Assembly: GCF_037902255.1 (NCBI RefSeq) | Contig: NZ_CP147990.1 | Coordinates: forward strand, 660,001 to 692,000 | Length of the DNA: 32,000 nt | Origin: Candidatus Electrothrix sp. GW3-4 | GTDB taxonomy: Bacteria > Desulfobacterota > Desulfobulbia > Desulfobulbales > Desulfobulbaceae | Direction: 5' to 3' | In this document: in pieces, positions 6,141-27,429 of the stretch | How the letters are laid out: every line of letters begins with the position of its first letter | How positions within the stretch are numbered: position 1 is the stretch's first letter | Notes under the pieces: model-generated | The model's input: the letters and a program-made list of their open reading frames with translations, nothing else | Told to the model about the DNA's origin: nothing | Database searches by the model: none | Program-made: the position numbers and the translations under genes

Positions 6141-6188
6141 CAATAAAAAAACGGGCTACGTGCTGAGCACGCACGGTCAACTGACCAC

Positions 6189-6229
6189 AAAAAAAGGGTC
6201 GCTAGCAATTAAGCTGGCGGCCCTTTTTT
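6189..6229. terminator. Bidirectional rho-independent terminator at the trailer end of the CRISPR array
   Basis: AAAAAAA-GGGTCGCTAGC-aattaa-GCTGGCGGCCC-TTTTTTG. This is an ~11-bp stem (with G-U pairs) flanked by an A-run and a T-run. On the minus strand it would terminate the pre-crRNA transcript. Confidence 0.6.
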
Positions 6230-6254
6230 GTGCCTTATCAACAGGCAAGATGTT

Positions 6255-7550
6255 CAGATAATACCCTCTTCATAGGGTAGGCCGTTGCAACACCATGTAT
6301 ACCACCCAATCCGAAAACATAGGGGCAGATAATACCCTCTTCATAGGGTAGGTGTTACGACGGGTGCTGGTTGTGAAATTGGAGCTGATGAGGATGAGAT
6401 CGTCTTAATACCCTCTTCATAGGGTAGGTGTTACGACGGAGCGCTGTCGTATATCGGCAACGGACCAAAGTCTTAATACCCTCTTCATAGGGTAGGTGTT
6501 ACGACCCTCCATTATTTCTGGGCAACTGCGGGACTTTCGTCTTAATACCCTCTTCATAGGGTAGGTGTTACGACATCCTGAGGTGTTAAGACCAGGCAAA
6601 AAAGCAAGTCTTAATACCCTCTTCATAGGGTAGGTGTTACGACTGGATACATAACATATAACTCACTAGAGAAAAGAGTCTTAATACCCTCTTCATAGGG
6701 TAGGTGTTACGACCGATTCACACCTTAAAACACTCAACAAAGGGAAGGTCTTAATACCCTCTTCATAGGGTAGGTGTTACGACTGCCCCCCTCCCGGGGG
6801 TTGTAATCTCTAAGAACTGTCTTAATACCCTCTTCATAGGGTAGGTGTTACGACTATAAATTTCCACGCCAGAGTGGGAAAAGAGGTCGTCTTAATACCC
6901 TCTTCATAGGGTAGGTGTTACGACGGCATGTGTCCTCAAAAAAGTCAATCTCTGGGGTCTTAATACCCTCTTCATAGGGTAGGTGTTACGACTGACTGGG
7001 ATAATAGAAGAGAAGGCGGAGATGGTCTTAATACCCTCTTCATAGGGTAGGTGTTACGACGGGTCCCTACACCGATGTATGGATAGCATCTGGCGTCTTA
7101 ATACCCTCTTCATAGGGTAGGTGTTACGACGTGGAAAAGGAATTGAAGACAGTTTATCTCGACTCGTCTTAATACCCTCTTCATAGGGTAGGTGTTACGA
7201 CACGAATTTACGGATCCATGGGGCTTCCGATGCTTTCTGTCTTAATACCCTCTTCATAGGGTAGGTGTTACGACAGAAAGGCATCCGAAAATGGAAAGAA
7301 AATCCTGTCTTAATACCCTCTTCATAGGGTAGGTGTTACGACTGAAAAGCTGATACAAATGGAGGAAAATCCATGAGTCTTAATACCCTCTTCATAGGGT
7401 AGGTGTTACGACCTTGGCTGGTAGCGATGAGACTGGATCTGTCAGTCTTAATACCCTCTTCATAGGGTAGGTGTTACGACTGTGGGGATGGCTACGGGGA
7501 GAAACCATGCGATGGTCTTAATACCCTCTTCATAGGGTAGGTGTTACGAC
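6255..7550 (-). CRISPR. CRISPR array, 19 repeats (36 nt) and 18 spacers (32-40 nt); probable minus-strand transcription; no cas genes in window
   Basis: Plus-strand repeat GTCTTAATACCCTCTTCATAGGGTAGGTGTTACGAC. Repeat starts: 6255, 6326, 6402, 6470, 6539, 6608, 6678, 6748, 6819, 6889, 6957, 7025, 7095, 7166, 7239, 7307, 7377, 7445, 7515. Seventeen repeats are identical; the two at the low-coordinate end are degenerate (CAGATAAT... start, and the first also ends CCGTTGCAA). Minus-strand form is GTCGTAACACC-TACCCT-ATGAAG-AGGGTA-TTAAGAC, with a 6-bp hairpin and an ATTAAGAC 3' handle resembling the ATTGAAAC/G handle of Cas6-processed class 1 repeats. Degenerate repeats at the low end plus an AT-rich flank at the high end set the orientation. 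Confidence 0.95.
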
Positions 7551-7930
7551 AGCACCCTTTCTTTAAAGAATAATGTATTCAACAGATTAAGCAAGTAAAA
7601 AAATGACATGGAAACGCGTTTTGAAAGTTGTGAATTTTGAACCGGCATTTTAGACAAAAAGACAATGTTATGCATAACATTGTGACTAAAAAGTCATAAT
7701 CAGTAAAGTAAATTGAACAAACGGTTTTTTGCTGTAAGTTTTCTTCTGTACTTCAAAAGGAATAGCTACAAAAAATAAATTATGACGAATAATGACAGGG
7801 GCAAAAAATAAGCCGAAAAAATTTGATGTCTGACCATTTTTTCACCCTACCTGCTGCATTTCTTCATATCAATATGGTACCATATCCAGTCGAATGCTTA
7901 AATAGAAAGATAGATAACAGTATCAGCCAA
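7551..7930 (-). promoter_or_regulatory. Probable CRISPR leader (AT-rich), containing a 22-bp perfect palindrome
   Basis: AT-rich non-coding stretch adjoining the perfectly conserved repeats. The palindrome ACAATGTTATGCATAACATTGT lies at 7662-7683, about 110 nt from the first repeat. Confidence 0.55.
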
Positions 7931-7940
7931 AACCAGAGGC

Positions 7941-8113
7941 CGCAGCAGTGATACGGGCTTGAATGCCGAGACTAGAGGGCGAGCGGACCCCGCCGCCAAA
8001 TCTTCCCCAGCAGATCTGGAAAAAAACACAGGTCAGCTCTATTTGCGTGCTTGAGGATGCGATTGCTCACAGGGAGTTCGCCTTAACCGGGGAAGCCTCC
8101 TACTGTCAGGCAA
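7941..8113 (+). repeat. Terminator-associated intergenic repeat family, copy 3 (long variant)
   Basis: It starts CGCAGCAGTGATACGGGC (compare GCGCAGTGATGGGGG in copies 1 and 2). It ends CAGGCAATAAAAAACCGGGTCACGCGCTTGAGCATG (compare CAGGCCAATAAAAAAACGGGCTACGTGCTGAGCACG in copy 2). The middle differs and lacks the T-arm-like core. Confidence 0.4.
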
Positions 8114-8150
8114 TAAAAAACCGGGTCACGCGCTTGAGCATGTACCCGGT
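8114..8150 (-). terminator. Rho-independent terminator of the CZB-domain gene
   Basis: On the minus strand, an ACCGGGT...ACCCGGT stem (8120-8126 / 8144-8150) is followed by TTTTTTATT. It lies about 40 nt after the stop at 8192. Confidence 0.7.
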
Positions 8151-8191
8151 GTCAAATCAAATCTGATCTACTACAATCAATGAGAGAAAGC

Positions 8192-8665
8192 TTAGACAAC
8201 CTTCTTTAGTCTGGGACTGTATTTCTCAAACTGTTTGTCACCAATAGCTGTAATCACTTTTTCTACCTGAAGAAGTTGGCTGATGACTGTTTTTGATTGT
8301 TCCTCCAGAATATTATATTTATTCATAGCCTGCTCACGTTGTTCAGCAAGCATTTTTTTACGAGACCGTCCTAGTAATTTACTGAAAAAAGAGGGTTCAT
8401 TCTCACCGAACAGAATTGAAAATATTTCCATATAGGTCTTGTGCAGCTTGTTATGTGACTCTTCAATTTCTTTAAATCCAGGAATCTCATTCAGCGTTTG
8501 CCCTACTGTGTAATACCAATTCCCGAATTCACACTCTGTTGGATTAACGGGAACTTTATCCTTCTCAAGAGGAACGCCTTCAATAAGGGCACGAGCATCA
8601 GCTACCCATTTTTTGTGGTTGCGTGCGGCATCTCTCAGTGTTGTAATGACTTCATTTTTGTCCAT
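8192..8665 (-). CDS. CZB (chemoreceptor zinc-binding)-like domain protein
   Basis: 157 aa. The pattern HKKWVADARALIEG...PTECEFGNWYY...EIEESHNKLH matches the H-x3-W ... C-x-(F/L)G-x-W ... H-x3-H layout of CZB domains as I recall it. It has its own terminator. Confidence 0.6.
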   Translation of the reverse strand: MDKNEVITTLRDAARNHKKWVADARALIEGVPLEKDKVPVNPTECEFGNWYYTVGQTLNEIPGFKEIEESHNKLHKTYMEIFSILFGENEPSFFSKLLGRSRKKMLAEQREQAMNKYNILEEQSKTVISQLLQVEKVITAIGDKQFEKYSPRLKKVV

Positions 8666-9747
8666 TTTTTAAAACCTCTATGTGGAATTTAGGGATTTTG
8701 CCGAAGTTTCAGCTGCATTATCATCGCGGGAGGCATAATAAAGCAATGCTTGACGCTTCCTGAAAACTGAGAAGAGTTTCTTCTGAAAAGATAAGTGCGG
8801 TAATAGGCAGCATGACAGATAGCTGCCAATAGGTGGGCTAAAGGCATAGCTTTACACTCCGGCATTTGTAAAAGTAGGTAGCCCGGCTGTCTCTTTTGGG
8901 GAGATCCGTGGCTTTCCGACACCGCCTCACGACGGCTGTGGCTTTATTCGACTTTCCGGTTCAGGCCAGAAAGCAGAGATACGTGTTCATTAAGCGAATG
9001 GCTTAAGGAACTTCTAAAAGGTATAAAAGTAAACAGAATATGTCAAGTTTTTTGTTAAAAAACAAATATATAAGATTAATTATCATTTATGAAAAAGAAT
9101 ATATCTTATTTTCTCTTTGTCGAGCAGGTCATAAAAGCACCCCCTCCGGTATCATAGCCGAAAGTAACTCTGTGCAGTCATGCGGGTTACTTGAGTAGAG
9201 TAGCAAACCTTTACGGGAAAGCCCCAAATGATCAATACTGACAGAGGGGAGTGAGATCAGATCATGGTAAAGAGAGTCCAGCTCATTAAAATCCATATGA
9301 CGACGGGCTCATATTAAGCAATTTGGCAAATACAGTCTGACTGAGCTTGAGCCTTTCTCTGATTTCTTTTGTTTGAGCGGAGGTTAGATTAACTTCTGGT
9401 ATGTTAAGCCCAAAGGCAGGGGCTTTTATTAGAAGAAGGCAACAGCTGAGCGCATATTTTTCAGTCGATGAATGTCGCGCTCTGTCGTTGTTATCAGCTG
9501 ATGCCTGAGTATTGACGGCAGGATGAGATACAATTTCGCTGGAAACGATATGTAGTAACAGCGTCTGGACGAATAAAAACTGTTGACAAGGTTTTGCTAT
9601 ATGGTAATTTTTTACAGCAAAACGGTTGAAGGAGCCGGGCGCTGTTTATTTGAAAAATACTCAATGACCTTAACCTGGTGCTTGGCTTTCTTCAACCGCC
9701 TTTCTTGCGAGGAGGGGGCTGTTCAATTGATATGACAGTGGTAAAAA

Positions 9748-14954: not shown

Positions 14955-15281
14955 ATGAAGGCACTCCGCACTCTGAAGCAGGTGCAGAATGGGCAGGTTC
15001 ACCTGCATCTGCCCAAACAGTTCTGGGGACAGCAGGTTGAAATCATTGTGCTCTCCGGGGCGCAGCAGGAAGGGGGTGAGGAGGCCGGAGCCTCTCTGCG
15101 CGGCTGTTTGCGGCAGTACGCGAATCCATCCCTGGCTGCGCAGGAAGAGGGGGCTTGGGGCACTGCGGTGGAGGAAGCAGGATGGCGAGAACTGACTCCG
15201 TGCCGCTATGTCTCCTGCGTACCTTGCCGCGCTGCCCGTACCTGTGCCAATTCCTCGCGCCATTTCTCCAATAAAGGATAG
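14955..15281 (+). CDS. Orphan AbrB/SpoVT-like antitoxin-type ORF; 3' end uncertain
   Basis: The N-terminus MKALRTLKQVQNGQVHLHLPKQFWGQQVEIIVL resembles small swapped-hairpin antitoxins. SD GAGGAGAAACCGGT-ATG. No cognate toxin follows. The last ~75 nt overlap the convergent STAND gene 3' end, so the true end or intactness is doubtful. Confidence 0.35.
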   Translation: MKALRTLKQVQNGQVHLHLPKQFWGQQVEIIVLSGAQQEGGEEAGASLRGCLRQYANPSLAAQEEGAWGTAVEEAGWRELTPCRYVSCVPCRAARTCANSSRHFSNKG

Positions 15282-17272
15282 TCGATCCAATCTGCAATTT
15301 GCACAGCTACTGTAAGGTATTTCTCTGCTTGAACAAGGTTAAGTATATCTTTATAGGTAAGCCCAATATTAAAGTATGTCACTGCTTCTCCGACCCTATC
15401 ACCAGACTGCCGCCGTAGAACCAAGGCTTGTTCTAAATATTCCATGGCCTTGTTATGATTTTCTTGAGAATGGTATATCGCAGCGATGTTGTTCAAGGTT
15501 TCTCCTGCTCCAATCTTGTCACCAGCCGCCCATCTGATAGGAAGAGCCTCCTCTAAATATACCAAGGCTATCTCCCATTCATCTTGGTGCATATAAACGT
15601 TGGCAATATTATTCAAGGTCGTGCCTTCCCCTTCTTGACTACGGATTTCCCGCCATATTTTTAGACTCTGCTTGAAATGGTGCAAGGCCAAGTCGTATCC
15701 TTCTTGAAGGGTGTGACTTTTTGCTATATTATTCAATGTTGCACCTTCTCCCTGCTTGTCACCTAACTCACGATATATTGGCAGGCTTTTCTCATACCAT
15801 TCTAAGGCTTTCTTATGATCACCGCATCTCCCACAAGTGTACCCAAGACTGTTCAAGCACCAAGCTTCATCTCTACGACCGCCTATGTGTCGGGCAGCAG
15901 TTAAAGCTATTTTTAAGGCGATTTGTCGATCCACCCAATGTCCCTGCCTGTCTAAATACCTTGAGATTAAGTAAACAAAATCTGACACTTCATCCCACAG
16001 CTCATTATTTAGACAAGCCTCAAGGAAGCGCAAGTGGTGTCCCCGCTCATCATTGGTGCAAACATATCCCTTTCTTCCGGGTAGCATATTAGAAACACAG
16101 AACCATTTATAATGGTCAGATAGCAATAGCAAGTTCTTCCTGCTCAAAGCCAGCTCAGTTCGGGCATAGGTATGCACCAACGCATGGCTTATCTGCCAGC
16201 GTTCCTCTTGCTTCTCCAGCAAACCATAATTAACCAGCTCACCCAACGCCTTCCGTGCCCGGCGTTCATCATCCTCAAGCACAGCCGCCACCGGTTCACG
16301 GGCTATCGGCGCAAAGGCCAAGGTACCTGCTACGCCCAGCGCAAGGCGGGCATCCTCGCTCACCTGCGCCACGCTACGCCGCAGCAGCAAGGCGGCATTC
16401 TCCTCCTGATGCGTACCGTCACCCAGTTCCTTGAACGGCTCTTTTTCCAACCACTTCAAGTAATCTGCCGCGCTCTCACCCGTGCTGCTGAGATACCGGC
16501 CCGCAATGCGCAAACCCACGGGCCAGCCATCCAATATCTTGCAGATGCCCTGCACGCTTGCATCATCCGTCGTTGTAGGGGCACAGCGTGCTGTGCCCTT
16601 ACTATGTAGCCGGAAGACCTCAGCTGCGGGCTGCTCCTCCAGCGGGGTCAGGTCAAGCCGGAAGCCCTGGGCATCGTCCCGCTTCCGACTGGTGATCAGC
16701 ACCCCGCAGGTACTGCGCAGATCAAGCACGGCCTTGAGGTCATCCGCCTCCTCGGTTCCGTCCAAGATGATCAATGCCTTCCTGCCTGAGAGCACCTGCC
16801 GCACTGTGCTGGCAAGGCCCGTCTTTGCCTCCACCTGAAAGGCTACGCAAATGGCTTGCAGGGCCTGCTCTGTTTGGGGATGTCCATAGAAGCTATGAAA
16901 GACTATGCCGTCCGGGAAGCGGGCTTTCTCCAGCTTATCCACTGCCTGCGCCGCCAAGGCTGACTTTCCCATGCCGCCCGGCCCGCACACAGCAACGACC
17001 TTGCCGGGTTGGAGCTGCTCCAATAAATCGGCAAGCTCCTTATCTCTGCCGAGGAAGCAGGCATCAAGGGGCTGGAGTTGACGGGGAATAACGGGCGGGG
17101 GAGTAGGCGGCGGCTGGTGATAATGAATGCCACCCTCCACATGGGCATGATTGCCCAGCACACCAATTTGTGCATTCTGGGCATTTATCTGCTTACCGAT
17201 AGCCTCATTCCCTTGGCCGATATTCTGCTCACCATCGCCACTGTGGTTGAAGGTATTGTCAGTCGTTCCCAT
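15206..17272 (-). CDS. STAND NTPase: NB-ARC-type P-loop domain plus C-terminal TPR array, short low-complexity N-terminus
   Basis: Walker A VAVCGPGGMGKSALA, Walker B ALIILDGTEEADD, and the GxP motif ILDGWPVGLRIAG (compare GLPLAL of NB-ARC). At least six TPR units carry LNNIA(K/N/A) signatures. I prefer the ATG at 17272 (MGTTDNTF...) because the track start at 17374 falls inside the TTGCAT promoter box of the hrpA-5' relic. Confidence 0.85.
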   Translation of the reverse strand: MGTTDNTFNHSGDGEQNIGQGNEAIGKQINAQNAQIGVLGNHAHVEGGIHYHQPPPTPPPVIPRQLQPLDACFLGRDKELADLLEQLQPGKVVAVCGPGGMGKSALAAQAVDKLEKARFPDGIVFHSFYGHPQTEQALQAICVAFQVEAKTGLASTVRQVLSGRKALIILDGTEEADDLKAVLDLRSTCGVLITSRKRDDAQGFRLDLTPLEEQPAAEVFRLHSKGTARCAPTTTDDASVQGICKILDGWPVGLRIAGRYLSSTGESAADYLKWLEKEPFKELGDGTHQEENAALLLRRSVAQVSEDARLALGVAGTLAFAPIAREPVAAVLEDDERRARKALGELVNYGLLEKQEERWQISHALVHTYARTELALSRKNLLLLSDHYKWFCVSNMLPGRKGYVCTNDERGHHLRFLEACLNNELWDEVSDFVYLISRYLDRQGHWVDRQIALKIALTAARHIGGRRDEAWCLNSLGYTCGRCGDHKKALEWYEKSLPIYRELGDKQGEGATLNNIAKSHTLQEGYDLALHHFKQSLKIWREIRSQEGEGTTLNNIANVYMHQDEWEIALVYLEEALPIRWAAGDKIGAGETLNNIAAIYHSQENHNKAMEYLEQALVLRRQSGDRVGEAVTYFNIGLTYKDILNLVQAEKYLTVAVQIADWIDYPLLEKWREELAQVRAARQGTQET

Positions 17273-17364
17273 AGATGATCTTGTTTCCTTTGATTGAGAC
17301 CCCAGGTATCTTTTTATTATCCTAATCGTATAGTCTGTTTTATAAAAAAGGGCGAATGAAAAGG

Positions 17365-17617
17365 TTTTTTGCATCCTTGATGTGAATCAGGTAGAGTGAT
17401 AGCCAGAACGGTTTCTTTGTCAAATTAACTGGACGTAATGTCACTAACACCTATGCAGCTTAACTACCCTACGCAGCTTCCCATCACCGACCGCAAGGAC
17501 GAGATCGTCCAGGCCATTCAGGATAATCAGGTTATCGTTATTGCAGGCGATACCGGCTCCGGCAAGACAACCCAGCTCCCCAAGATGTGCCTGGAATATA
17601 TAACCAGCCTGGGGTAA
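17365..17617 (+). pseudogene. Relic of hrpA promoter plus first 48 codons (diverged duplicate of 18477-18708)
   Basis: Promoter TTGCAT (17369-17374)-N17-TAGAGT (17392-17397). ATG at 17453 gives MQLNYPTQLPITDRKDEIVQAIQDNQVIVIAGDTGSGKTTQLPKMCLE, after which homology ends (YITSLG, stop at 17615-17617). By hand alignment there are about 10 differences in 144 coding nt versus the real hrpA, mostly synonymous or conservative. Confidence 0.85.
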
Positions 17618-17735: not shown

Positions 17736-18044
17736 ATGTTTAATCTGCAACTGCAAGTCGATCCAAAAACGGAACAACGCCTGAAAGCAATTCTAGCGCA
17801 TATGCAAAATGAAGAAACCTTTGCGCAAAACATCATTGCCTACCAAATTGCTGAACTTCAAAAAAGTCTGCTCAATATCCGGCTTGATTTAAAAGGCTTT
17901 GAAAATAAATATAAGCAGTCGAGTGAAAAATTCTACCGCCTGTATGAACAAGGACAGACCGATGACAGCGAAGATACGATGTTGTGGGCAGGTCTTTACG
18001 AAATGCTGCGTAATAATGAAGAGAGGCTGCGGGAACTCGCATGA
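17736..18044 (+). CDS. Putative antitoxin/partner of the DUF6516 protein (coiled-coil, 102 aa)
   Basis: 102-aa ORF overlapping the downstream gene by 4 bp (ATGA at 18041). It has helical, charged composition and no obvious SD. Confidence 0.5.
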   Translation: MFNLQLQVDPKTEQRLKAILAHMQNEETFAQNIIAYQIAELQKSLLNIRLDLKGFENKYKQSSEKFYRLYEQGQTDDSEDTMLWAGLYEMLRNNEERLRELA

Positions 18045-18415
18045 TTGACCTCTACTTCCGGAATGTTGAACATATTATCCAGGAGTTTCCAAATATCCGC
18101 AGCTCCGCTCTCAAGAAAAAACAGTATAACGCCAAACAGGGATATATCAGCGGCTCTGTCCATTTTGACTCTGGAAGCCGTCTTGAGTTTATGGAACTCA
18201 AAGACACAGACAGATCAGCAAAGATAAAATATCGCTATCAGTATATGGATCAACAGAATACCTGTCTCTTCCGATACGATAATGCACCACATCATCCCGA
18301 GATAACAACTCATCCTCACCATAAGCATAATGGGGAGGAGATTATCGCAAGTTGTGAGCCGACGTTATTTGATATTTTACTTGAGATTGCCGAACAAGAA
18401 CGTGAAGACGAGTAG
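18041..18415 (+). CDS. DUF6516 / TumE-like toxin-family protein
   Basis: 124 aa with YRYQYMDQQNTCLFRYDNAPHHPEITTHPHHKH, the RYDNAPHH...FPHHKH signature I associate with DUF6516 (annotated as the TumE toxin family). Confidence 0.6.
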   Translation: MIDLYFRNVEHIIQEFPNIRSSALKKKQYNAKQGYISGSVHFDSGSRLEFMELKDTDRSAKIKYRYQYMDQQNTCLFRYDNAPHHPEITTHPHHKHNGEEIIASCEPTLFDILLEIAEQEREDE

Positions 18416-21500: not shown

Positions 21501-22623
21501 GCAATTGGAGAATCTCCCCCTCCACCTGCGTATGCGTTTCCGTCTCTGCGACGAGCAGGGAAAGGCTCTGTATTACACGCGTGATTTCCATAAGCTTGCT
21601 CTACATTGCGGTTCAATGCGGCAGACAATGCAGGGAGGGCAGATGCGGAAGGTCGAAGACCTGCCAGAAAGAAAGAATATCCAGGTATGGGATTTTGCCG
21701 TGGCTCCGCGCCCTCTGCCTGCACGGGACGAGCATAACCGGGTCACGGGCCTCTACTATCCGGCTTTGTTCCTGGGATTGAGCAAGGGGCAGGAGCAGCA
21801 GCTTTGCCTGAGGTATATTGCCGACCCTGAGCAGGCAGTTCGAGAGAACAGAAAGGGGCTTCGTTTCCTCTATGGGCAGTATTTCAGCAAGGAGTTTAAG
21901 GCGGTTGCCAAGGAATGCAAGGCAGCGGTGGCCGGGCATACCGCCTCCTGGCTCTCTCTTGGGATGAAGGCCGGGGCCGGAGAAACCAGGGACCTGTTGC
22001 TCAACTGTATTGTGGACAGCCTGTTTCAGATTAGCGGGGACCTACCGAACAAGACTGGCTTTGAGCTGATCCTTGACGATCTCCGGGAGCAGGGAGTGAC
22101 CCGACTGGCGAGGGAGCAGCTCAATCAGGTGCTGGATCTGCTGGCGGAACGCCGCAAGACTCAGGTCGCCCTGACGCAAAGTAAACAACGGGCCGGGAAA
22201 AGTCGGAGTGCGGATCAGGCCCGCTTTGCCGAATATGAGGACTTACTTGAGAGACTGGTACCTGCGGATTTCCTTGATCGATTTTCTCCAGAAGAGGCCG
22301 GTGACCGAAAGCGGTACCTTCAGGCCCTGGCCAAGCGGGTAGAACGGGCCGAGCATAGTCCGCATAAGGATGCGGATAAGGTCAAGAGGGTTCAGCCCTT
22401 TGCTGAGCATCTCCGTCAGCTGGATCGGAAAGAGGCGGAGCAGAAAGCAGGCGGGAGCATTTCGGCTCCCTGCCGGGAGGCTGTGGTCCTGTATCGCCGC
22501 ATGGTGGAGGAGTTCCGTATATCTGTCTTTGCCCCGGAAATCGGTACAGCCATGCCAGTCTCAGAAAAACGGCTGAAGCAGCAATGGAAGCTGGTGGAGG
22601 AGAGCTGCAGGAGGGTGGAATAA
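18565..22623 (+). CDS. hrpA: ATP-dependent RNA helicase HrpA (DEAH-box, with C-terminal DUF3418-type region)
   Basis: GDTGSGKTTQLPK (motif I), IIDEAHERS (DEAH), TNVAETSITVPG and QRAGRCGRV (motif VI), HA2/OB regions, and a long C-terminal extension as in E. coli HrpA. I prefer the ATG at 18565 (MQLNYPTQLPITDRKDEIV), which is conserved with the relic copy, over the track start at 18508. Confidence 0.95.
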   Translation: MQLNYPTQLPITDRKDEIVQAVREHQVIVIAGDTGSGKTTQLPKMCLEAGRAGEGTMIGCTQPRRIAALSVTERVQEELGQVRTVGSKIRFQDRTGPKTRIKFMTDGILLAETRGDRDLRAYDTLIIDEAHERSLNIDFLLGYLHQLLARRQDLKLIIASATIDTEKFSKHFHDAPIIQVEGRTYPVTVEYCPPDNDDDESNQDIDRLVADQIVRLMARRGGDILAFLPTERDILDTVALLRKELADRALILPLFGRLQGGEQRRIFRSAQRRKIIVATNVAETSITVPGIECVVDTGLARIAHYNVRAGTTHLPVTRIARASCDQRAGRCGRVGPGRCIRLYSEEDYLARDEFTLPEIQRSNLAEVILQMLSLRLPEPRNFPFIDPPAPRAVNDGFRILRELGALDSEHQLTERGRIMARLPLDPRISRMIIEGAELGVLRETTIIAAALAIQDPRVQPPDKLEKARQAHRAFNYPGSDVMTLVNMWDTCRGEALPSPGSSDKGQSRQDDKEQTREAAPTPSAGQLRRFCEANFCSWQRMREWFDIHEQILRILKQHKEFVSALDRMAESSSLQNNVGTRHAVSLPESQDRRGEPCDRPLRSPSNRRDEPLCSPGLSDKGQTRGSAPTAPTLVHQALTAGFLRNIALRKEKNTYQISGNREAMLFPGSGLYNKGGQWIVAADFVHTSQLFARMAATIEVDWLERLGGDLCKRSYSDPHWQKKSGQVIALEKVSLFGLVIAADRRVNYGRISKKTAAEAKEIFIREALIPGELKGKYPFLEHNLALARQQEELEERLRRRGIMTDEQVLYEFYDQRLELVYDRFTLNRFLSRKRKQAKPGEEADGFLRMTEEDLCQSQPESDELYRFPKTLTTPQGELRLSYTFHPGQDDDGVTVDIPVSCCPALSPNLFEWLVPGLLEDKVAALLKGLPKRLRKLFVPLPDTAALLMDGMDLYQGSLYPALERFLLRHFQVRVTRADWQLENLPLHLRMRFRLCDEQGKALYYTRDFHKLALHCGSMRQTMQGGQMRKVEDLPERKNIQVWDFAVAPRPLPARDEHNRVTGLYYPALFLGLSKGQEQQLCLRYIADPEQAVRENRKGLRFLYGQYFSKEFKAVAKECKAAVAGHTASWLSLGMKAGAGETRDLLLNCIVDSLFQISGDLPNKTGFELILDDLREQGVTRLAREQLNQVLDLLAERRKTQVALTQSKQRAGKSRSADQARFAEYEDLLERLVPADFLDRFSPEEAGDRKRYLQALAKRVERAEHSPHKDADKVKRVQPFAEHLRQLDRKEAEQKAGGSISAPCREAVVLYRRMVEEFRISVFAPEIGTAMPVSEKRLKQQWKLVEESCRRVE
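20296..20452. repeat. Cluster of REP-like GTAGGG-initiated palindromic units lying in-frame inside hrpA
   Basis: GTAGGGACACGGCATGCCGTGTCCCTAC (20296-20323, a perfect 28-nt palindrome). GTAGGGGCGAaccttgtgaTCGCCCGTTAC (20339-20368). GTAGGGACGAACccctgtGTTCGCCCGG (20384-20411). Then TTTATCTGATAAAGGGCAGAcacggggATCTGCCCCTAC. A related unit (TTCGCCCGGTTCGTCTGATAAAGGGCAGA...GCTGCCCCTAC) lies at about 20055-20126. Confidence 0.8.
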
Positions 22624-22724
22624 TGGAAAGGAACGACCTGGTAAAACCAGATAAAATCAGGAGGATCTATTAAACAGGTCGTTTGATAATGCGGAACCTT
22701 TGTACCAAAATAATATTGCTGATT

Positions 22725-23612
22725 TTACAAAAAACCTATTTTTAGCCTTTCTTTTGGCCATGCCCACGCTGTCAGATTGCTCATAAATGCTCCTGCAAAA
22801 CACCCGCAATTTGAACAATCGGCATTATTCCCAAAGCATCGTCTCGTGTTCCATGAAGCATCAAAATGACGTGCCTCATCGCCCCAGTAACACCAGCCTC
22901 GATGGTCGGTTTTTTCATACCAGCTGATCATTGAATCATTCAGCAAAAAGTCGTTCGGATAGCGCGATTTCACTCTTCGAAGCTCCTGAAGAATCTCTCT
23001 ACGGAGACTCTTTGCAGGAACTATGGGGTCGGTATCTTTGTCATCCCCGGTTTTAGACATGTAGATATTGCAGACAACGCCTGAAAAATTGTGTTCCTGA
23101 GAAGCCCGTACCAGCTGTTCAAGTTCAGTGTAATTTTGGCCGTTGACTGTCATATTGATGATGATCCGCTTATCACCGGAATAGTTTTTCAGAATTTTAG
23201 AAAAAACGCCTTGGCCTCGTATTTTGTCATTGGTTTTCTCGGTGCCCTCAACAGATACATACAGAGGATGTTTGAATTCCAGAGGAATTTTTATAGTTCC
23301 ATTTGTGATAATATACACAAAGGGGAAAATTTTATCCGCCAACATCAACACATCTGGTCTTAACGCTGGTTCACCACCTACTAACAAAACGAGGCGAACT
23401 CCAGACTGATAGAGATCATGCAACCGTTCTTCCCATTGTGTTATAGGGGTAACCTCTTTTGAAAAATTTTTTTTCCCATAAAAATGATAACAATGCTCAC
23501 ACCTGAGATTACAGGCATCAGTGACATCAAACTCAGCCATAAACTTGGTTCCAAATACTTTCCGTTTCAGCTCAAAGAAGCCAAGTTGCGTTAACTTTAT
23601 GAATTTATCCAC
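22725..23612 (-). CDS. Radical SAM enzyme, HpnH-like architecture (N-terminal helix, CxxxCxxC, Cys-rich C-terminal domain)
   Basis: 295 aa. CNLRCEHC radical SAM motif at residues 34-41, GGEPAL, and a C-terminal WCYWG...RRCFGNNADCSNCGC resembling the DUF3463/SPASM-like tail of HpnH-type enzymes (from memory). GTG start with weak SD. AT-rich codon usage contrasts with hrpA. Confidence 0.8.
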   Translation of the reverse strand: MDKFIKLTQLGFFELKRKVFGTKFMAEFDVTDACNLRCEHCYHFYGKKNFSKEVTPITQWEERLHDLYQSGVRLVLLVGGEPALRPDVLMLADKIFPFVYIITNGTIKIPLEFKHPLYVSVEGTEKTNDKIRGQGVFSKILKNYSGDKRIIINMTVNGQNYTELEQLVRASQEHNFSGVVCNIYMSKTGDDKDTDPIVPAKSLRREILQELRRVKSRYPNDFLLNDSMISWYEKTDHRGWCYWGDEARHFDASWNTRRCFGNNADCSNCGCFAGAFMSNLTAWAWPKERLKIGFL

Positions 23613-23823
23613 TTTTATTTGGTTGTTTTATTGGTTACATTGATGACCAAGCTTCATGAGCATACCTGTTACTTTGCGTGTGCAGTGCGCGTTTGGTGCA
23701 AGCCGCTGCCCCTGTTGATAAAGGGGTGGCGAGTTCATCTCAATACCCGCACCTTGTCAAAGGTATAGCTGACTTTTCGACTGATTTCAATTGAATTCAT
23801 GTAACCTGTATTAACGTTTGACG

Positions 23824-23940
23824 GAGCAATTTCCGGTCTCGCTCTTTGCCCCGGAAATTGGCACGGCCATGCCTGTCTCTGAGAAACGGCTGAAGGAGCA
23901 ATGGCAGCAGGTGGAGGAGAGTTGTCGGCGGGTGGAGTGA
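23824..23940 (+). pseudogene. Relic of the hrpA 3' end (last 38 codons plus stop), diverged copy
   Basis: Translates EQFPVSLFAPEIGTAMPVSEKRLKEQWQQVEESCRRVE*, compared with the real EEFRISVFAPEIGTAMPVSEKRLKQQWKLVEESCRRVE* (22507-22623). My hand alignment gives about 26 mismatches in 117 nt, many at third codon positions. Confidence 0.85.
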
Positions 23941-24054
23941 GGTTGCCCGTTTGAAAAAAATATCCAGAAACGTGTAGATGTTGATTTGTTTTTTGAAGTA
24001 TTCTGTTAGCTGCTGTTCAATCCGTCTATAATCTCATCAACGATTACATCCATC

Positions 24055-25205
24055 ATGATCAAAAAACTCGTTGTTTCCAATTTCCGCAGTCTTGGTCCTG
24101 ACATTCATTTTGAACCGGGCAAGCTTTCTTTTTTATAGGACCGAACGGATCAGGAAAGTCAAACATTCTTGATGTGCTCTCTTTTGTGAGGGATTCGGTT
24201 ATGCAGGGCCTACCTGCCGCTATCACCCATAGACGTGGTATCGACAGTGTACGGAGACGCAGTCATGGTCGTCCTTTTGATGTACACATAGAATTTCAGC
24301 TTCTTATTGATCAGCAGCATGTAACGTATGAATTTATTATTACCGGTGATCGCCTCGAAGAGTATAGGGTAAAGACAGAAAAGGCGATTATGTACGGACC
24401 GAAGGGCGAGGAAAAGGTCTCATTTATCAGAAATGGTCATGAGTGGGATGGGCCGGAAGGAGTGGCGCCCTTTATGGATGAGCAATCCTTGGCCTTGACG
24501 GCACTGGGAGGAACAAAACAGTTCAAACCCTTGGTTGATTTTCTTTCAGGTCTAACCGTTTATTCTATTTTTCCGGATACCCTTCGGATTCCTCAGCGTT
24601 TTGATTCAAGCCATCCACTTAAAGAGCATGGAGAGAACTGGGTATCTATTTTACGGGAATTGGTGAAAGAAAAGTACGCCAAAGATGATATTGTTACAGG
24701 ATTGAGGAAGCTCACCGGAGATATTGAGGATGTCCGAGTGGCGAGCGCAGCAGGATATCTGATAGCTGAGTTTAAGCAGCAGGTCAAAGGACAAAAGGCG
24801 AAACGTTGGTTTGACGCAGCTCAGCAGTCGGATGGAACGCTTAGGGTTGCAGGATTATTGACGGCCTTGGTGCAAACACCGGCTCTTCCGGTCATCGGTG
24901 TGGAGGAGCCAGAACTTACCGTTCATCCCGGAGCTCTGCCCATGCTCTATGATTATCTGCGGCAGGCCAGCGAGATGTCGCAGGTCTTTGTTACTACGCA
25001 TAGTCCGATAATCCTTGATGTTGTTGATGTTGAAAACGATGTTGTTTTTGTCGTCAATCGGGTGGATGGTAAAACAGATGTAAAAAGGATGGCGGATACC
25101 CAGCTGGAACCCGTTCGCAAGAGCTTGTTGCGATTAGGGGATCTCTTTATGTCAGGTGACTTGCAACTTTCTCTTTTTGACGATGATACCCCCTGGAGGG
25201 AATGA
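24055..25205 (+). CDS. ABC/SMC-type AAA ATPase (AAA_15/AAA_21, OLD-N-terminal-like), interrupted by a -1 frameshift at a T6 run
   Basis: ATG at 24055 gives MIKKLVVSNFRSLGPDIHFEPGKLSFL, then TAG at 24136-24138. The next frame continues from 24135 as IGPNGSGKSNILDVLSFVRDS... (Walker A) and joins the listed ORF 24174..25205. The C-terminus has LPVIGVEEPELTVHPG (Walker B / D-loop) and VTTHSP (H-loop). One extra T in the 24129-24134 run would restore a ~383-aa protein. A perfect TATAAT lies at 24026-24031. Confidence 0.8.
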
Positions 25206-25822
25206 TTGTGGCTGGCAAAAAGGGGTATCTGCTTGTGGAAGGACACGGGGAAGTGGAGGCTGCCCAGAATTTTATTACCCGCCTGAGTCACGATATCGGG
25301 ATATACGACATTCCCTGGAGTAAACCCTTGCGTTGGACCAATCTGCATCAATGGCAAGGGCATAAATCGGGAGGGGTAATGGCAGGTGCTGAATTTATTC
25401 GCACAAAGCCAGATGCTGGGGCATTGTTGATTCTTCGAGATGAGGATAATCAATGTCCCAAGGAGCTTGCGCCGCAGATCGCAAGGCAATTGCGAATGCT
25501 TAAACTTCCCTTTCCAACGGCTTATGTGTTGTTGCATCCAGAATATGAAGTGCTCTTTCTTCCTTGTCTCGAGCAGATGGGGTTTCCGTCTTGGGACAGG
25601 GATTCGTGGGAGGCTCGGCGAGGAATTAAAGAATGGCTTTCCGGGAAGTTGCCCAAAGGACGTTCGTACAAGCCCACTGTGCAGCAGTTTGCTTTAACCC
25701 GGAAACTTGACTTCTCGATGCTGCGAGTAGCAGACGTGCCCTGTTTCGGTAGCTTGGAAAGAGGACTTCGGTTTCTATCAGATCACTCAGGCCAAACCGG
25801 TAAAGTATACCCGGTAGAGTGA
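25202..25822 (+). CDS. DUF4276-like protein with Toprim-like Glu ... DxD arrangement
   Basis: 206 aa, overlapping the ATPase gene by 4 bp (ATGA). LLVEGHGEVEA near the N-terminus and LILRDEDNQCP about 70 residues later match my recollection of DUF4276. They also match the catalytic Glu and DxD layout of Toprim/OLD-type nuclease domains; that part is inference. Confidence 0.65.
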   Translation: MIVAGKKGYLLVEGHGEVEAAQNFITRLSHDIGIYDIPWSKPLRWTNLHQWQGHKSGGVMAGAEFIRTKPDAGALLILRDEDNQCPKELAPQIARQLRMLKLPFPTAYVLLHPEYEVLFLPCLEQMGFPSWDRDSWEARRGIKEWLSGKLPKGRSYKPTVQQFALTRKLDFSMLRVADVPCFGSLERGLRFLSDHSGQTGKVYPVE

Positions 25823-25861
25823 GTCGTTCCCTACACTGCTCGCATAGTGTGTTTTAAACAA

Positions 25862-25892
25862 GCTGAAATGGCAATGGAAGCTGGTGAAGTGA
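25862..25892 (+). other. Second, short relic of the hrpA 3' end
   Basis: GCTGAAATGGCAATGGAAGCTGGTGAAGTGA versus hrpA GCTGAAGCAGCAATGGAAGCTGGTGGAGGAG (22574-22604). The two share a 16-nt exact core, GCAATGGAAGCTGGTG, plus GCTGAA. Confidence 0.55.
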
Positions 25893-25946
25893 GGAATGTC
25901 TCCCTCGGTCCAGCTCTCCTATCCTGTGGGTGTTAGTGGGCGAATC

Positions 25947-26699
25947 TCAGATACTTTCTATCGCGGCAAACTCCGGTTCATGAAGTGGGATGACATAATC
26001 CGCCATGTCCCGAACCTTAAGCATGAGGTCATAGGCGGCATAGGTATCGGTGCTGGTACCCGGCGGAATGACCTCCATCTCCATTGCCTTGACCTGTAAC
26101 GGTGGCTCGAAGTTTTCTCGGATGACGCAAAAGCCGGTGATGGCGGTTTTACCGCGTTCCGTGTCGATGAATACGGTCATGCCGCCCGGTGTATGGGCCG
26201 GGGTGTGCATCACTGAGATGCCTGGAAAAAGCTCCTGATCCGTGCTCACGGTTCTGATCTGTCCGGCCTCGCGGATTTCATAGATAAAGTCCTCCACATA
26301 GCGGTAATCCAGGGGGTGGGGATTATTGATGGTCTCCAGCTCTTTTTCGTGGATATAGAACACCGCATTACTACATTTATAATCGTTTTCGCAATGGTCA
26401 GTATGCAGATGGGTATGGATGACCACGTCAATATCTTCCGGTTTAAGTCCGTATCTCGCTAACCCCTCCTCAAGGGTGTAAATCTTCCCGCCGATGGCCT
26501 TTTCCCGGTCTTCGGAGATGACCGGATGCATTTCACCTGTGTCAATCAGGATCTTTTTTTCACCACCTGCAATATACCAGCTGTAGATCGGGATGGTGTA
26601 AGGTGTGCCGTAGTCATACTGATAGGTCATCATGCCTTTGTCAAAGACCTTGGTGCCCACCACAATGGGGTGAATGGTATATTTGTTCATTGTGTTCAT
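25947..26699 (-). CDS. MBL-fold metallo-hydrolase (N-acyl homoserine lactonase-like family)
   Basis: HTHLHTDHCEN (HxHxDH zinc motif). MNKYTIHPIVVGT...ILIDTG is an N-terminus typical of AiiA-like lactonase-family proteins. I prefer the start at 26699 or 26690 (MNTMNKY) over the track start at 26765. Confidence 0.85.
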   Translation of the reverse strand: MNTMNKYTIHPIVVGTKVFDKGMMTYQYDYGTPYTIPIYSWYIAGGEKKILIDTGEMHPVISEDREKAIGGKIYTLEEGLARYGLKPEDIDVVIHTHLHTDHCENDYKCSNAVFYIHEKELETINNPHPLDYRYVEDFIYEIREAGQIRTVSTDQELFPGISVMHTPAHTPGGMTVFIDTERGKTAITGFCVIRENFEPPLQVKAMEMEVIPPGTSTDTYAAYDLMLKVRDMADYVIPLHEPEFAAIESI

Positions 26700-26887
26700 T
26701 TGGTTTGAAAGAATGGATTTGTAAGTTTGAGTGTCAAGCTTGATATAAAAAAGGATAAAAAGCAAGCGATTAACCGGAAGCGATCTCTTTTTTTGACTGG
26801 GGAGACTATGGGAAAAAGGGAGAACGTGGTATATTATTTGTCAGAAGTCTTCTTCTGATCGTCAACGTCTTCTCTTGAGGTGATATT

Positions 26888-27241
26888 ATGAAGATCGTTT
26901 TTGTCTATAATGCCGACAGCGGCAAGATCAATACGTTGCTTGATATTGGTCATAAGATCCTCCGTCCCGACAGCTATTCCTGCAACCTTTGCTCGTTGAC
27001 CCATGGTGCTTTTAGTGAGAAAGAAGAGTGGCGGAAGTACCGGGAAGCGAGTCAACATGAGCTGGAATTTCTCCATAAGGATGAATTTGTGGAAAAGTAT
27101 AGAGAGGACAAAGAATACACCTATCCTGTTATACTGAAGATGAGTGAGGGTGGGAAGAGCCTGGAGGTGTTGCTGGCGACAGAGGAAATTAATGCCCTGG
27201 CTGGCCTTGAAGAATTAGTGAGTAGGTTGCCCAAGAAATAA
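26888..27241 (+). CDS. Conserved hypothetical small protein (117 aa) with CxxC (CNLCSLTHG)
   Basis: ORF with SD GAGGTGAT, followed by a strong terminator. No family confidently recognised. Confidence 0.6.
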   Translation: MKIVFVYNADSGKINTLLDIGHKILRPDSYSCNLCSLTHGAFSEKEEWRKYREASQHELEFLHKDEFVEKYREDKEYTYPVILKMSEGGKSLEVLLATEEINALAGLEELVSRLPKK

Positions 27242-27300
27242 GAGGCTTCAGGGAAGAGAGCAGGAAGGAAAAACGCACCCTGCTGAGGAATGAAATTGAA

Positions 27301-27337
27301 CACCCGAGGGAGAGGAAACTTTCTCTCGGGTGTTTTT
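27301..27337 (+). terminator. Rho-independent terminator
   Basis: CACCCGAGGGAG...CTCTCGGGTG stem (27301-27332) followed by TTTTT. Confidence 0.8.
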
Positions 27338-27353
27338 ATTCAAGGATGTTTTT

Positions 27354-27388
27354 GTAAAAATACCGGATGACTCCTTGGAGTCATCCGG
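27354..27388 (-). terminator. Rho-independent terminator of acs
   Basis: Perfect 12-bp hairpin CCGGATGACTCC-tt-GGAGTCATCCGG (27363-27388), followed on the minus strand by TATTTTTAC. It lies about 40 nt after the acs stop. Confidence 0.8.
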
Positions 27389-27429
27389 CCAATTTTCATC
27401 CTTTGCTGGCCTTCCCCAGAGGGGTGGGG

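Follow-up and report, generated by a model that had tools for sequence, protein, structure and literature searches.

What do the two overlapping genes at positions 24055-25822 of the window (the whole stretch of 32,000 nucleotides analysed here) encode, and do they form a defence system that has not been described before? The original prediction read them as an ABC-type ATPase followed by a DUF4276-like protein with a Toprim layout, that is, an OLD nuclease split into two polypeptides and possibly an uncharacterised defence system. A PADLOC search had been proposed as a check. It returned HEC-01A for the first gene and HEC-01B for the second, both near full length. Gene 1, with a single-base deletion repaired, matches HEC-01A (PDLC04178) with an E-value of 2e-92, residues 2-371 lying on positions 9-381 of the 399 in the profile. 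Gene 2 matches HEC-01B with 1.9e-23 (PDLC04196; residues 11-175 on 7-175 of 197) and 1.2e-17 (PDLC04200). The name stands for Hma-embedded candidate 01, a system catalogued in PADLOC-DB v2 (Payne et al., bioRxiv 10.1101/2024.01.29.577857). Judged by these profile matches, the pair is a copy of a catalogued system in a cable bacterium and not a new one, so the hint at an uncharacterised system falls away. We read it as a candidate anti-phage system of the HEC-01 family, composed of an ABC/SMC-type ATPase (HEC-01A) and a DUF4276-type Toprim-like protein (HEC-01B), and give this reading a probability of about 0.72.

Layout of the gene pair

The two genes run in the same direction and share the four nucleotides ATGA at 25202-25205; the overlap on which the claim of translational coupling had been based was thus verified.

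24055-25205, + strand: gene 1, HEC-01A-type ABC (AAA_21/SMC-like) ATPase, 383 aa once repaired; carries the 1-nt deletion
25202-25822, + strand: gene 2, HEC-01B-type DUF4276-related Toprim-like protein, 206 aa

Gene 2 has an alternative start, GTG at 25208, which lies 7 nt after GGAGGG and is equal to or better than the ATG; in strain Rat3 the gene is annotated from the equivalent GTG. The ATPase and the Toprim-like protein are separate open reading frames with their own start codons, as the description of a split OLD nuclease had it. A scan for promoters and terminators gave no signal exceeding shuffle expectation. All the motifs named beforehand (GPNGSGKSN, the Walker B/D-loop, TTHSP, LLVEGHGE and RDEDN) were located in the sequence, and their positions are given below with the gene to which they belong.

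Gene 1 is an ABC/SMC-type ATPase

Judged by the gathering thresholds of Pfam, gene 1 matches AAA_21 (1.2e-32, 114.7 bits against a threshold of 27), AAA_15 (4e-17, 63.2 bits against 32.1) and SMC_N (2e-12, 47.5 bits against 40). Other PADLOC profiles were matched as well, namely AbiLi (1.4e-25), mad3 (1.5e-22), Old (4.4e-18) and GajA (1.3e-15), and among solved structures the best sequence match is to the N-terminal part of a Thermus OLD (6p74, 1.7e-08). Four motifs hold residues that are invariant in 74 homologs:

24138-24164, + strand: Walker A / P-loop, GPNGSGKSN; G29, N31, G32, G34, K35 and S36 invariant
24822-24848, + strand: ABC signature-like motif, QQSDGTLRV; S259, D260, G261, T262, L263 and R264 invariant
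24891-24932, + strand: Walker B / D-loop, VIGVEEPELTVHPG; E284, P286, E287, H291 and P292 invariant
24993-25007, + strand: H-loop (switch), TTHSP; H316 and P318 invariant

The fold was read from an AF2 model of a 96% identical ortholog (P0121, pLDDT 91.5). Foldseek found 764 matches to this model in the PDB at E <= 1e-3, with the heads of Smc4, SMC, Rad50 and PtuA at E-values of 3e-15 to 1e-12 and probability 1.00; PtuA is a Septu/retron protein. Pfam scores, invariant motifs and the ABC-head fold all agree with the assignment to the AAA_15/AAA_21 ATPases made at the outset, and gene 1 is an ABC/SMC-type ATPase.

Is gene 2 a DUF4276 protein with a Toprim fold?

The DUF4276 assignment held for the family and fell short for the protein itself. 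The score of gene 2 against PF14103 (DUF4276) is 18.3 bits (residues 12-127 on profile positions 1-115 of 192; E 0.003), which is under the gathering threshold of 30.2 bits. Its relatives do match: 69 of 71 close and 84 of 88 diverse homologs hit PF14103, with a best E-value of 9.8e-17, and all 88 diverse ones hit the HEC-01B profile. Distant homologs on plasmids carry the annotation DUF4276 family protein. From its homologs, then, gene 2 is a divergent relative of DUF4276.

For the Toprim fold, the residues that would form the catalytic site are the following:

25229-25252, + strand: LLVEGHGE, strand beta1 with the predicted catalytic Glu13; E13 and G14 invariant in 88 members, down to 25% identity
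25436-25450, + strand: RDEDN, putative metal-binding DxD motif (Asp80-x-Asp82) at the end of strand beta3, from conservation and the AF2 model
25535-25549, + strand: HPEYE, with the acidic residues Glu114 and Glu116 behind strand beta4; neither varies among 71 close homologs

Neither the 71-member nor the 88-member alignment shows any change at D80; D82 is at least 90% conserved in the 71 close homologs, and Glu114 and Glu116 are at least 90% conserved in the 88 diverse ones. The AF2 model (pLDDT 92.9) has the topology beta-alpha-beta-alpha-beta-alpha-beta and places E13 and D80 where the predicted strands 7-12 and 72-80 end. In published work HEC-01B/DUF4276 has been placed in the Toprim superfamily, with the OLD metal site conserved.

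Do fold and profile searches point the same way? Foldseek against the PDB gave no match to gene 2 at E <= 1e-3. Above that level, C-terminal regions of OLD proteins matched at E 0.026-0.05 with TM 0.32-0.38 (Xanthomonas OLD 0.36-0.38), and the best informative viral match in a BFVD fold search was an RloB-like protein (E 0.013, TM 0.47, probability 0.93). Aligned by hhalign with the single P2 Old sequence, the gene 2 family sets its LLVEGHGE stretch on residues 394-415 (VLLVEGKTE), at a non-significant E of 0.066 over 22 columns that hold the VEG motif only. These matches to OLD, RloB and P2 Old are weak and directionally consistent with a Toprim fold. Some relatives of gene 2 also match the OLD-like_TOPRIM, RloB, AriB and mad4 profiles weakly. 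Profile searches of the PDB with the 71- and 88-member alignments found no Toprim protein; the only matches, to designed repeat and Rossmann proteins, were taken as spurious. A search for homologs of the phage P2 Old Toprim region returned just five near-identical fragments, hence an OLD Toprim profile could not be built. The invariant Glu13 and Asp80, the near-invariant Asp82, Glu114 and Glu116, the modelled topology and the published assignment together bear out the Glu ... DxD layout first noticed, and they support gene 2 as a Toprim-like protein with a predicted metal-dependent nuclease site of the Glu/DxD type.

A frameshift in the ATPase gene

Is the pair functional in this genome? In a DNA alignment with five intact Electrothrix orthologs, one C is absent at about position 24128, where TTTCCTT has become TTTCTT.

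24127-24138, + strand: frameshift site, TCT TTT TTA TAG, one C lost; the orthologs have TCC TTT TTT ATA

The open reading frame starts with ATG at 24055. The deletion falls after codon 24, and the frame ends after 27 codons at the stop TAG 24136-24138. The Walker A motif (IGPNGSGKSN...) lies in the -1 frame, which runs on from 24135 as far as the stop at 25203-25205. Since only a 27-aa peptide and the nuclease gene are expressible as written, the window copy of HEC-01 is probably inactive. Of the two HEC-01 genes, the ATPase gene is not intact here (a pseudogene or an assembly error).

When did the break occur? The dN/dS ratios of the two genes are 0.03-0.09, and therefore the break must be recent or else stem from an assembly error. 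The latter would mean that the missing C is an artefact of assembly or sequencing and that the pair is intact and functional in the organism. The dN/dS of the ATPase, 0.03-0.07 against four orthologs, is in line with this, as are the 383 codons that show no further defect, and the other Electrothrix copies at the hrpA locus are all intact. The single-base deletion also lies within a run of pyrimidines (TTTCCTTTTTT), where indel errors arise easily; the base was lost from a CC dinucleotide, however, and not from a long homopolymer. Moreover, decay is frequent in the family: about 8 of 76 genome loci are broken, the ATPase is split at locus L005, and a second copy at L012 has a Pro-to-Leu change in Walker A and a truncated gene 2. 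An artefact thus seems possible, and we consider it the less probable origin of the break.

Could the ribosome pass the break? A -1 slip at T_TTT_TTA would yield a low level of the 383-aa ATPase (…KLSFL-IGPNGSGKS…) and hence a throttled system. The heptamer at 24129-24135 was made by the deletion itself. It fits the X_XXY_YYZ pattern, its -1 frame coincides exactly with that of Walker A, and the 0-frame stop TAG follows directly. The downstream 100 nt fold somewhat better than shuffled sequences (z = -2.3; 4 of 200 as good), but the predicted stem begins only 3 nt past the heptamer, and intact orthologs carry the same downstream sequence. Given the T-run, such a slippery site is likely to arise by chance. 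The site is not conserved, for no ortholog is shifted and the break in L005 lies elsewhere in the gene. Programmed frameshifting at 24129-24135 was therefore judged unlikely, and the bypass it would provide highly improbable.

The hrpA 3' end as a probable insertion site

How did the pair come to lie where it does? It had been described as a cassette of its own between relics of the hrpA 3' end, and diverged copies of that end were indeed found on either side.

23805-23936, + strand: upstream hrpA-3' relic, where the cassette has its left border; 78% identity with the genuine end of hrpA (22488-22619)
25862-25895, + strand: downstream hrpA-3' relic, right border; 28-nt remnant plus TGAGG

Compared with the genuine 3' ends of hrpA in Rat3 and MAN1_4, the upstream relic is 85.5% identical, and the 118 nt of intergenic sequence after it are conserved 5' of the pair in other Electrothrix. 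The downstream relic is truncated at its 5' side and has an internal deletion; the stop TGA plus GG is retained. At L012 an equivalent hrpA relic of 77 nt lies 3' of the pair. GC content falls from about 57% in hrpA to 40-50% over 22600-27400. All five Electrothrix genomes examined have the pair at this hrpA site, and in a contig of a close relative the site is empty. Besides hrpA, the genes around the pair encode a radical SAM protein, a protein of the metallo-beta-lactamase fold and an acetyl-CoA synthetase, and there is a 117-aa ORF. hrpA as a functional partner of the pair was ruled out by its adjacency in Electrothrix only. The radical SAM gene was considered as a recurring partner, since a radical SAM gene occurs at L005 too; its product and that of the window show no relationship (E 0.033), the one at L005 adjoins an LplA-like gene, and the idea was rejected.

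In our reading the pair came in as a cassette at the 3' end of hrpA, and a second cassette, with the radical SAM gene, inserted ahead of the pair later. The cargoes seen at the site are the HEC-01 pair, the radical SAM gene and, in another genome, a second HEC-01 copy; the MBL-fold gene is probably another. Behind each cargo stands a separate copy of the final 30-130 nt of hrpA, as one would expect if circles bearing a mimic of the hrpA 3' end had repeatedly integrated in the Campbell manner. Taken with the site found empty in a relative, the nested relics suggest a hotspot of repeated insertion. We tentatively propose that the hrpA 3' end of Electrothrix might be a capture site for small cassettes without an integrase of their own, an integron-like hotspot served in trans, although we would not put the odds in its favour. 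If true, the site would serve cable bacteria as a store of defence and accessory genes. The mobile elements of these organisms are barely described, and the hrpA relics offer a lead there. The nested cassette site was the least expected part of the findings.

Distribution and the question of a defence role

Is the pair a housekeeping unit or an accessory one? Gene 2 was directly preceded by the ATPase gene in every related locus open to checking (76 of 76), and the pairing is therefore called obligate. No neighbour is conserved among 129 flanking genes of the homolog loci. The neighbours differ across 80 loci, and the immediate ones are for the most part genes of ordinary metabolism, not of defence. 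About five related loci lie within R-M/MADS-like operons, between type I S (mad5-like) and M (mad2-like, MTase) genes, and integrases, transposases, reverse transcriptases and HsdR adjoin some homologs. A transglutaminase-core gene was considered as a general third component; it lies immediately upstream in L003 and L004/L015, with only one weak match on the opposite strand among the other genome loci, and was set aside as lineage-specific. The pair has a patchy distribution that spans at least 10 phyla, with identities of 40-87%, and no homolog of gene 2 was found in the phage collection. A housekeeping context conserved across genomes would have spoken against the original prediction; with loci that differ and an empty hrpA site, no such context was seen. 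The HEC-01 pair is a stand-alone, horizontally mobile operon and is accessory.

Does such an operon serve immunity? The published phage results are mixed. The discoverers tested a HEC-01 representative and saw no protection from any phage tried (bioRxiv 10.1101/2024.01.29.577857), while a representative from a cold seep protected E. coli B from at least one of T7, T5 and T4 (PMC12881386). The claim of a candidate defence module stands. Another explanation is that the pair is not immunity at all, and is instead a mobile module for DNA maintenance or repair (an SMC/RecF-like ATPase with a RecR-like Toprim protein) or a selfish addiction module; the latter would persist through its own toxicity. 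Purifying selection is strong and conservation across phyla is high (55-77% identity), which, with the very low dN/dS, is unusual for a defence gene; flanking genes are mostly metabolic, the site is the same in 5/5 Electrothrix genomes, and the first HEC-01 test gave no phage phenotype. All these would suit a role outside immunity. On the other hand, the distribution is patchy (88 confirmed matches in 185,579 species genomes, in a scan limited by its search pattern), the hrpA site is empty in a close relative, pseudogenes are frequent, some copies lie inside R-M/MADS-like operons, protection from phage has been reported once (PMC12881386), and MADS defence requires mad3 and mad4. We consider a role outside immunity unlikely and keep to the candidate anti-phage system.

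How might such a system work? What the analysis shows is family identity, the ATPase fold, conserved catalytic-type residues, strictly paired genes, a context that varies, purifying selection and the frameshift; complex formation, nuclease activity, trigger and defence role of the pair are inferred. In the most likely mechanism, drawn by analogy with PARIS, OLD, AbiL and mad3/mad4, the ATPase may oligomerise through its ABC heads and hold or gate the nuclease subunit. A trigger derived from a phage or plasmid would be sensed through variable beta-rich inserts of the ATPase, with a change of nucleotide state. This change may release or activate the Glu/DxD metal-dependent nuclease, and the nuclease would then cut nucleic acid (DNA or tRNA) and stop the infection, possibly at a cost to the cell.

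The host range of HEC-01 now takes in cable bacteria (Electrothrix/Electronema). HEC-01 appears as a strictly paired unit that occurs in many phyla under strong purifying selection, mostly stand-alone and sometimes in R-M/MADS-like operons. Because the only two representatives put to the test gave opposite outcomes, the intact and highly conserved Electrothrix/Myxococcota clade is a reasonable choice for mechanistic work. The practical value of the finding is limited.

Comparison with known systems

AbiL also has two genes, an AAA_21 ATPase (AbiLi) and a small Toprim-related partner (AbiLii, RloB-like). Its partner family is RloB (PF13707) and not DUF4276, and only one of 88 gene 2 relatives matches RloB weakly. 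With the OLD family (P2 Old, class 1; Gabija GajA, class 2) the pair shares the ABC ATPase motifs and the Toprim Glu…DxD, and the VEGxxE beta1 motif of gene 2 was set on P2 Old 394-415 (hhalign E 0.066). In OLD and GajA, however, both domains are fused in one polypeptide, whereas here they are encoded by two genes, and the PADLOC Old and GajA matches are confined to the ATPase part.

PARIS, with an ABC ATPase (AriA) and a separate Toprim effector (AriB, DUF4435), is the best-understood mechanistic model; its ATPase scaffold frees the nuclease upon sensing a phage protein (PMC11464382). The effectors differ: gene 2 is DUF4276-type and matches neither AriB nor DUF4435, and the AriB profile is touched by one of its 88 relatives (E 0.0056). 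The AriA match of the window ATPase covers a generic AAA_21 region, and the protein has about 380 aa, compared with about 55 kDa for AriA.

MADS, the methylation-associated defence system of Pseudomonas aeruginosa, has a related pair in the same kind of arrangement, mad3 (an AAA_15/21 ABC ATPase) followed by mad4 (a DUF4276-type Toprim protein). Deletion of mad3 or mad4 weakens the defence, and both are needed for full defence. The window ATPase, though, scores 92.9 bits against the 420-bit cut-off of the NCBIfam MAD3 equivalog, and it matches PADLOC mad3 at 1.5e-22 compared with 2e-92 for HEC-01A. Gene 2 has no mad4 match, and only 4 of its 88 relatives do. No ORF scanned near the pair resembled a MADS component, and none of the neighbours named above was recognised as one of the mandatory partners mad6, mad7 and mad8, in a scan that ran without the PADLOC mad6-8 profiles.

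The closest system is HEC-01 itself. The window pair differs from it in standing alone at the hrpA 3' end, not Hma-embedded, and in its frameshifted ATPase gene; the two families and their order, ABC ATPase then Toprim-like protein, are the same, and both profiles are matched near full length.

Gene pair and protein families

Two ORFs in the same direction make up the region, as called in the window:

24055, + strand: ATG start of gene 1, the ATPase gene; 27 codons, then TAG at 24136-24138
24135-25205, + strand: remainder of gene 1 in the -1 frame, from IGPNGSGKSN to TGA at 25203-25205
25202-25822, + strand: gene 2, whose ATG overlaps the gene 1 stop
25208, + strand: alternative GTG start of gene 2, 7 nt after GGAGGG; the start called in strain Rat3

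The motifs quoted for both genes in the original prediction were all found at the expected positions, and the ATGA overlap at 25202 was borne out. With either start of gene 2 (25202 or 25208), the two genes are tightly coupled. Does the pair have a name? In a PADLOC check of the two proteins, the best PADLOC-DB matches by far were HEC-01A for gene 1 (2e-92, nearly full length) and HEC-01B for gene 2 (1.9e-23), and HEC-01B was matched by all 88 of 88 gene 2 relatives. By these profiles, the pair belongs to the already named system HEC-01. The proposed combination of an ABC-type ATPase with a Toprim-like DUF4276 protein was supported as well, and the observation is confirmed.

Gene 1 is securely an ABC-type ATPase. 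It matches Pfam AAA_21 (1.2e-32, residues 25-322), AAA_15 (4e-17) and SMC_N (2e-12), and the Walker A residues, the SDGTLR signature-like motif, the EEPE Walker B region, the D-loop HP and the H-loop histidine are invariant in 74 homologs. The structure was modelled for P0121, an intact ortholog 96% identical to gene 1; this AlphaFold model (pLDDT 91.5) matches the ATPase heads of SMC, Smc4, Rad50 and PtuA (Septu/retron) at 3e-15 to 1e-12 in Foldseek. Among solved proteins, the closest in sequence is a Thermus OLD nuclease, over its N-terminus. Gene 1 is not MAD3 itself, scoring 92.9 bits against a cut-off of 420.

The window gene 2 is below the Pfam threshold for DUF4276 (18.3 against 30.2 bits); among its relatives, PF14103 is matched by 69 of the 71 close ones and by 84 of the 88 diverse ones, and distant homologs on plasmids carry the annotation DUF4276 family protein. 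E13, G14, D80, Y156 and Q162 are invariant across the 88 members, down to 25% identity; C85, E114 and E116 are near-invariant, as is D82 among the 71 close homologs. In the AlphaFold model (pLDDT 92.9), E13 stands at the end of the first strand (7-12). A helix, a short strand and another helix come next, then strand 72-80 with D80-x-D82 at its end, a further helix, and strand 106-111 followed by E114/E116; the C-terminal half is helical and bears the YKPT…Q motif. As modelled, this order of strands, helices and acidic residues is the Toprim arrangement. Searches against solved Toprim proteins (Foldseek against PDB, BFVD, PDB profile searches and hhalign) gave no significant similarity. Below significance, OLD C-terminal regions rank 13, 20 and 47 in Foldseek PDB (TM 0.32-0.38) and an RloB-like protein ranks second in BFVD (TM 0.47); PDB profile searches with the family gave nothing relevant, and the only stretch that hhalign paired with P2 Old was LLVEGHGE, matched to LLVEGKTE of Old, also below significance. 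A few relatives weakly match the OLD-like_TOPRIM, RloB, DUF3226, AriB and mad4 profiles. From structure, HEC-01B has been placed in Toprim, and it keeps the metal site of BpOLD (Payne et al., bioRxiv 10.1101/2024.01.29.577857); DUF4276 and RloB have likewise been placed there, Mad4 being a DUF4276 homolog (Menshen study).

State of the window copy

Is the window copy intact? In the DNA alignment, one C is missing relative to five intact Electrothrix copies: the window reads TCT TTT TTA TAG where the orthologs read TCC TTT TTT ATA or TCC TTC TTT ATA. The deleted base is one of the CC pair adjoining the T-run, and a long homopolymer is not involved. Against four orthologs (dS 0.55-1.1), dN/dS is 0.03-0.07 for gene 1 and 0.06-0.09 for gene 2. 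On these ratios, strong purifying selection acted on both genes until a very recent time, and therefore the frameshift is either a recent inactivation or an assembly error.

The deletion also yields a 0-frame T_TTT_TTA heptamer with TAG directly after it (24129-24138). Such a heptamer is a canonical -1 slippery site, and here the -1 frame is the one in which the complete ATPase is restored. Programmed -1 frameshifting there would bypass the break, and the 100 nt downstream do fold slightly better than shuffles (z = -2.3). However, intact orthologs carry the same downstream sequence and no relative shares the frameshift, so such a bypass is very improbable. The heptamer is probably a coincidence of the T-run, and the window pair is probably inactivated.

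The hrpA 3' end as an apparent insertion site

The features concerned, in the window and in L012, a locus from another Electrothrix-type genome, are:

22488-22619: last 132 nt of hrpA
22725-23612, - strand: radical SAM protein, 295 aa (Pfam Radical_SAM 4.9e-09)
23805-23936: hrpA relic, repeating those 132 nt at 78% identity
25862-25895: second hrpA relic, 28 nt with the stop codon context kept
L012, 11788-11865: hrpA relic
L012, 12918-14443 (= L014, 7773-9298): second HEC-01 copy, Walker A mutated (GLNGSGKS), gene 2 cut to 125 aa

The two window relics bear out the predicted cassette between hrpA-3' relics. GC content falls from about 57% in hrpA to 40-50% over 22600-27400, and is about 55% in the acetyl-CoA synthetase gene (acs). 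Candidatus Electrothrix sp. Rat3 has the same order of hrpA, pair, MBL-fold gene, 117-aa ORF and acs, and hrpA directly precedes the pair in MAN1_4, L011 and L012 too. Relative to Rat3, the window has an extra 1.2 kb (22620-23838), which contains the radical SAM gene on the minus strand and brings in a new hrpA 3' end; this low-GC cassette is absent from Rat3, L011, L012 and MAN1_4. The decaying second copy in L012 lies in tandem behind another hrpA relic, and at 88.8% DNA identity is closer to the window pair than the first L012 copy is. In the related metagenome contig L094 (3452-3721), the hrpA end leads straight to the 117-aa ORF and then acs; this site is empty, with no radical SAM gene, pair or MBL gene. 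The empty site and the Electrothrix comparisons indicate that the cassette description is correct and that relatives differ at this site.

Behind every cargo seen, namely the radical SAM gene, the HEC-01 pair and the second pair in L012, lies a diverged copy of the hrpA end. On these sequence comparisons, the 3' end of hrpA acts as a site of repeated insertion. The order of hrpA end, cargo, hrpA relic, older cargo and older relic is the one expected if circles bearing a copy of the hrpA 3' end had integrated again and again by single crossover. There is no recombinase gene in the hrpA-end island of the window. This nested, integrase-free cassette site in cable bacteria is the most unexpected element, and it lies outside the original prediction. 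Separately, the window radical SAM gene was compared with the one adjoining the pair in locus L005; the two proteins are unrelated.

Other features in the window

15206-17374, - strand: STAND NTPase, 722 aa (NB-ARC, nSTAND1/NACHT-like, then TPR_12 repeats), just upstream of hrpA
17736-18044, + strand: 102-aa ORF, upstream of and overlapping the TumE gene
18041-18415, + strand: TumE-family toxin (Pfam TumE 8.5e-25)
8874-8952, - strand: c-di-GMP-I riboswitch (Rfam RF01051, 51.8 bits, gathering score 35)

The STAND NTPase resembles Avs/NLR-type bacterial immune sensors, and Rat3 and L012 have equivalent TPR/NB-ARC genes at the same position. Between it and hrpA, the TumE gene and the 102-aa ORF (17736-18415) are probably a toxin-antitoxin pair. 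The riboswitch lies upstream of small minus-strand ORFs (8689-8922 and 8192-8665). The roughly 2.8 kb of 5350-8190 contain no ORF of at least 100 aa on either strand, no Rfam family and no tRNA, and could be decayed genes or unannotated RNA.

Distribution and neighbourhood

How widely is the pair spread? In all nine annotated contexts the ATPase gene lies directly upstream of gene 2, and the flanks include integrases, transposases, a DGR reverse transcriptase with bAvd, another reverse transcriptase, HsdR, and an NB-ARC/TPR protein adjoining an AAA_21/metallophosphatase pair. Two conserved peptide patterns were used to scan 185,579 species genomes; 88 loci were confirmed and 80 of these kept, spanning at least 10 phyla. 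The ATPase gene is directly upstream in all 76 kept loci having upstream DNA, with breaks or truncations in about 8 of them. The nearest genes match 68 different Pfam families upstream (59 genes) and 93 downstream (70 genes), and no recurring partner was found among these neighbours. Clustered at 50%, the wider family of gene 2 counts 1,529 representatives (E <= 1e-3); homologs are rare on plasmids (three Streptomyces megaplasmids) and none was found in the phage collection.

Is the pair enriched in defence islands? Only in part. In about 5 of about 70 genomes (such as loci L020, L022, L033, L035 and L036), the pair is embedded in R-M/MADS-like operons: upstream lies a type I specificity subunit that also matches mad5, and downstream an N6-methyltransferase that also matches mad2. 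This fits a MADS-like layout and the "embedded" in the name HEC. Ordinary metabolic genes make up most of the neighbours, and hence the enrichment is modest.

Between Electrothrix and members of Chloroflexota, Acidobacteriota, Myxococcota and Planctomycetota, gene 2 shares 60-73% identity (loci L014-L093). For a putative defence gene this is unusually strong conservation, and it points to recent horizontal spread, strong constraint, or both. A 482-aa transglutaminase-core gene lies 7 nt upstream of the pair in L003 (5394-6842) and L004 (5399-6847, = L015 3399-4847), that is, in Candidatus Electronema and one metagenome contig, whose flanks otherwise differ. The other genome loci gave a single weak match on the opposite strand (L085, 31%). 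It may be a lineage-specific third gene.

Proposed mechanism and comparison with known systems

The gene for the ABC ATPase always stands with that for a small protein carrying Toprim-type catalytic residues, and the two move together and are conserved together. By analogy with PARIS, OLD, AbiL and MADS, the ATPase would form an oligomeric sensor restraining the predicted nuclease; a trigger from an invading element would alter its ATP state, and the predicted nuclease would then be freed or activated and cut DNA or tRNA. The discoverers of HEC-01 count it among nine "Hma-embedded candidates", describe it as an ABC ATPase paired with a TOPRIM protein, and saw no protection by it in their E. 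coli assays (Payne et al., bioRxiv 10.1101/2024.01.29.577857). A 2026 study of cold-seep microbes picked one HEC-01 cluster at random and reports that E. coli B was protected by it from at least one of the phages T7, T5 and T4 (PMC12881386); in other surveys the system is still a candidate that lacks validation. In the PARIS paper, AbiL and MADS3-4 are named as systems that combine an ABC ATPase with a TOPRIM protein (PMC11464382), and full MADS defence needs mad3/mad4, genes related to the pair. The window pair is a new member of this known, named candidate defence family and not a new system.
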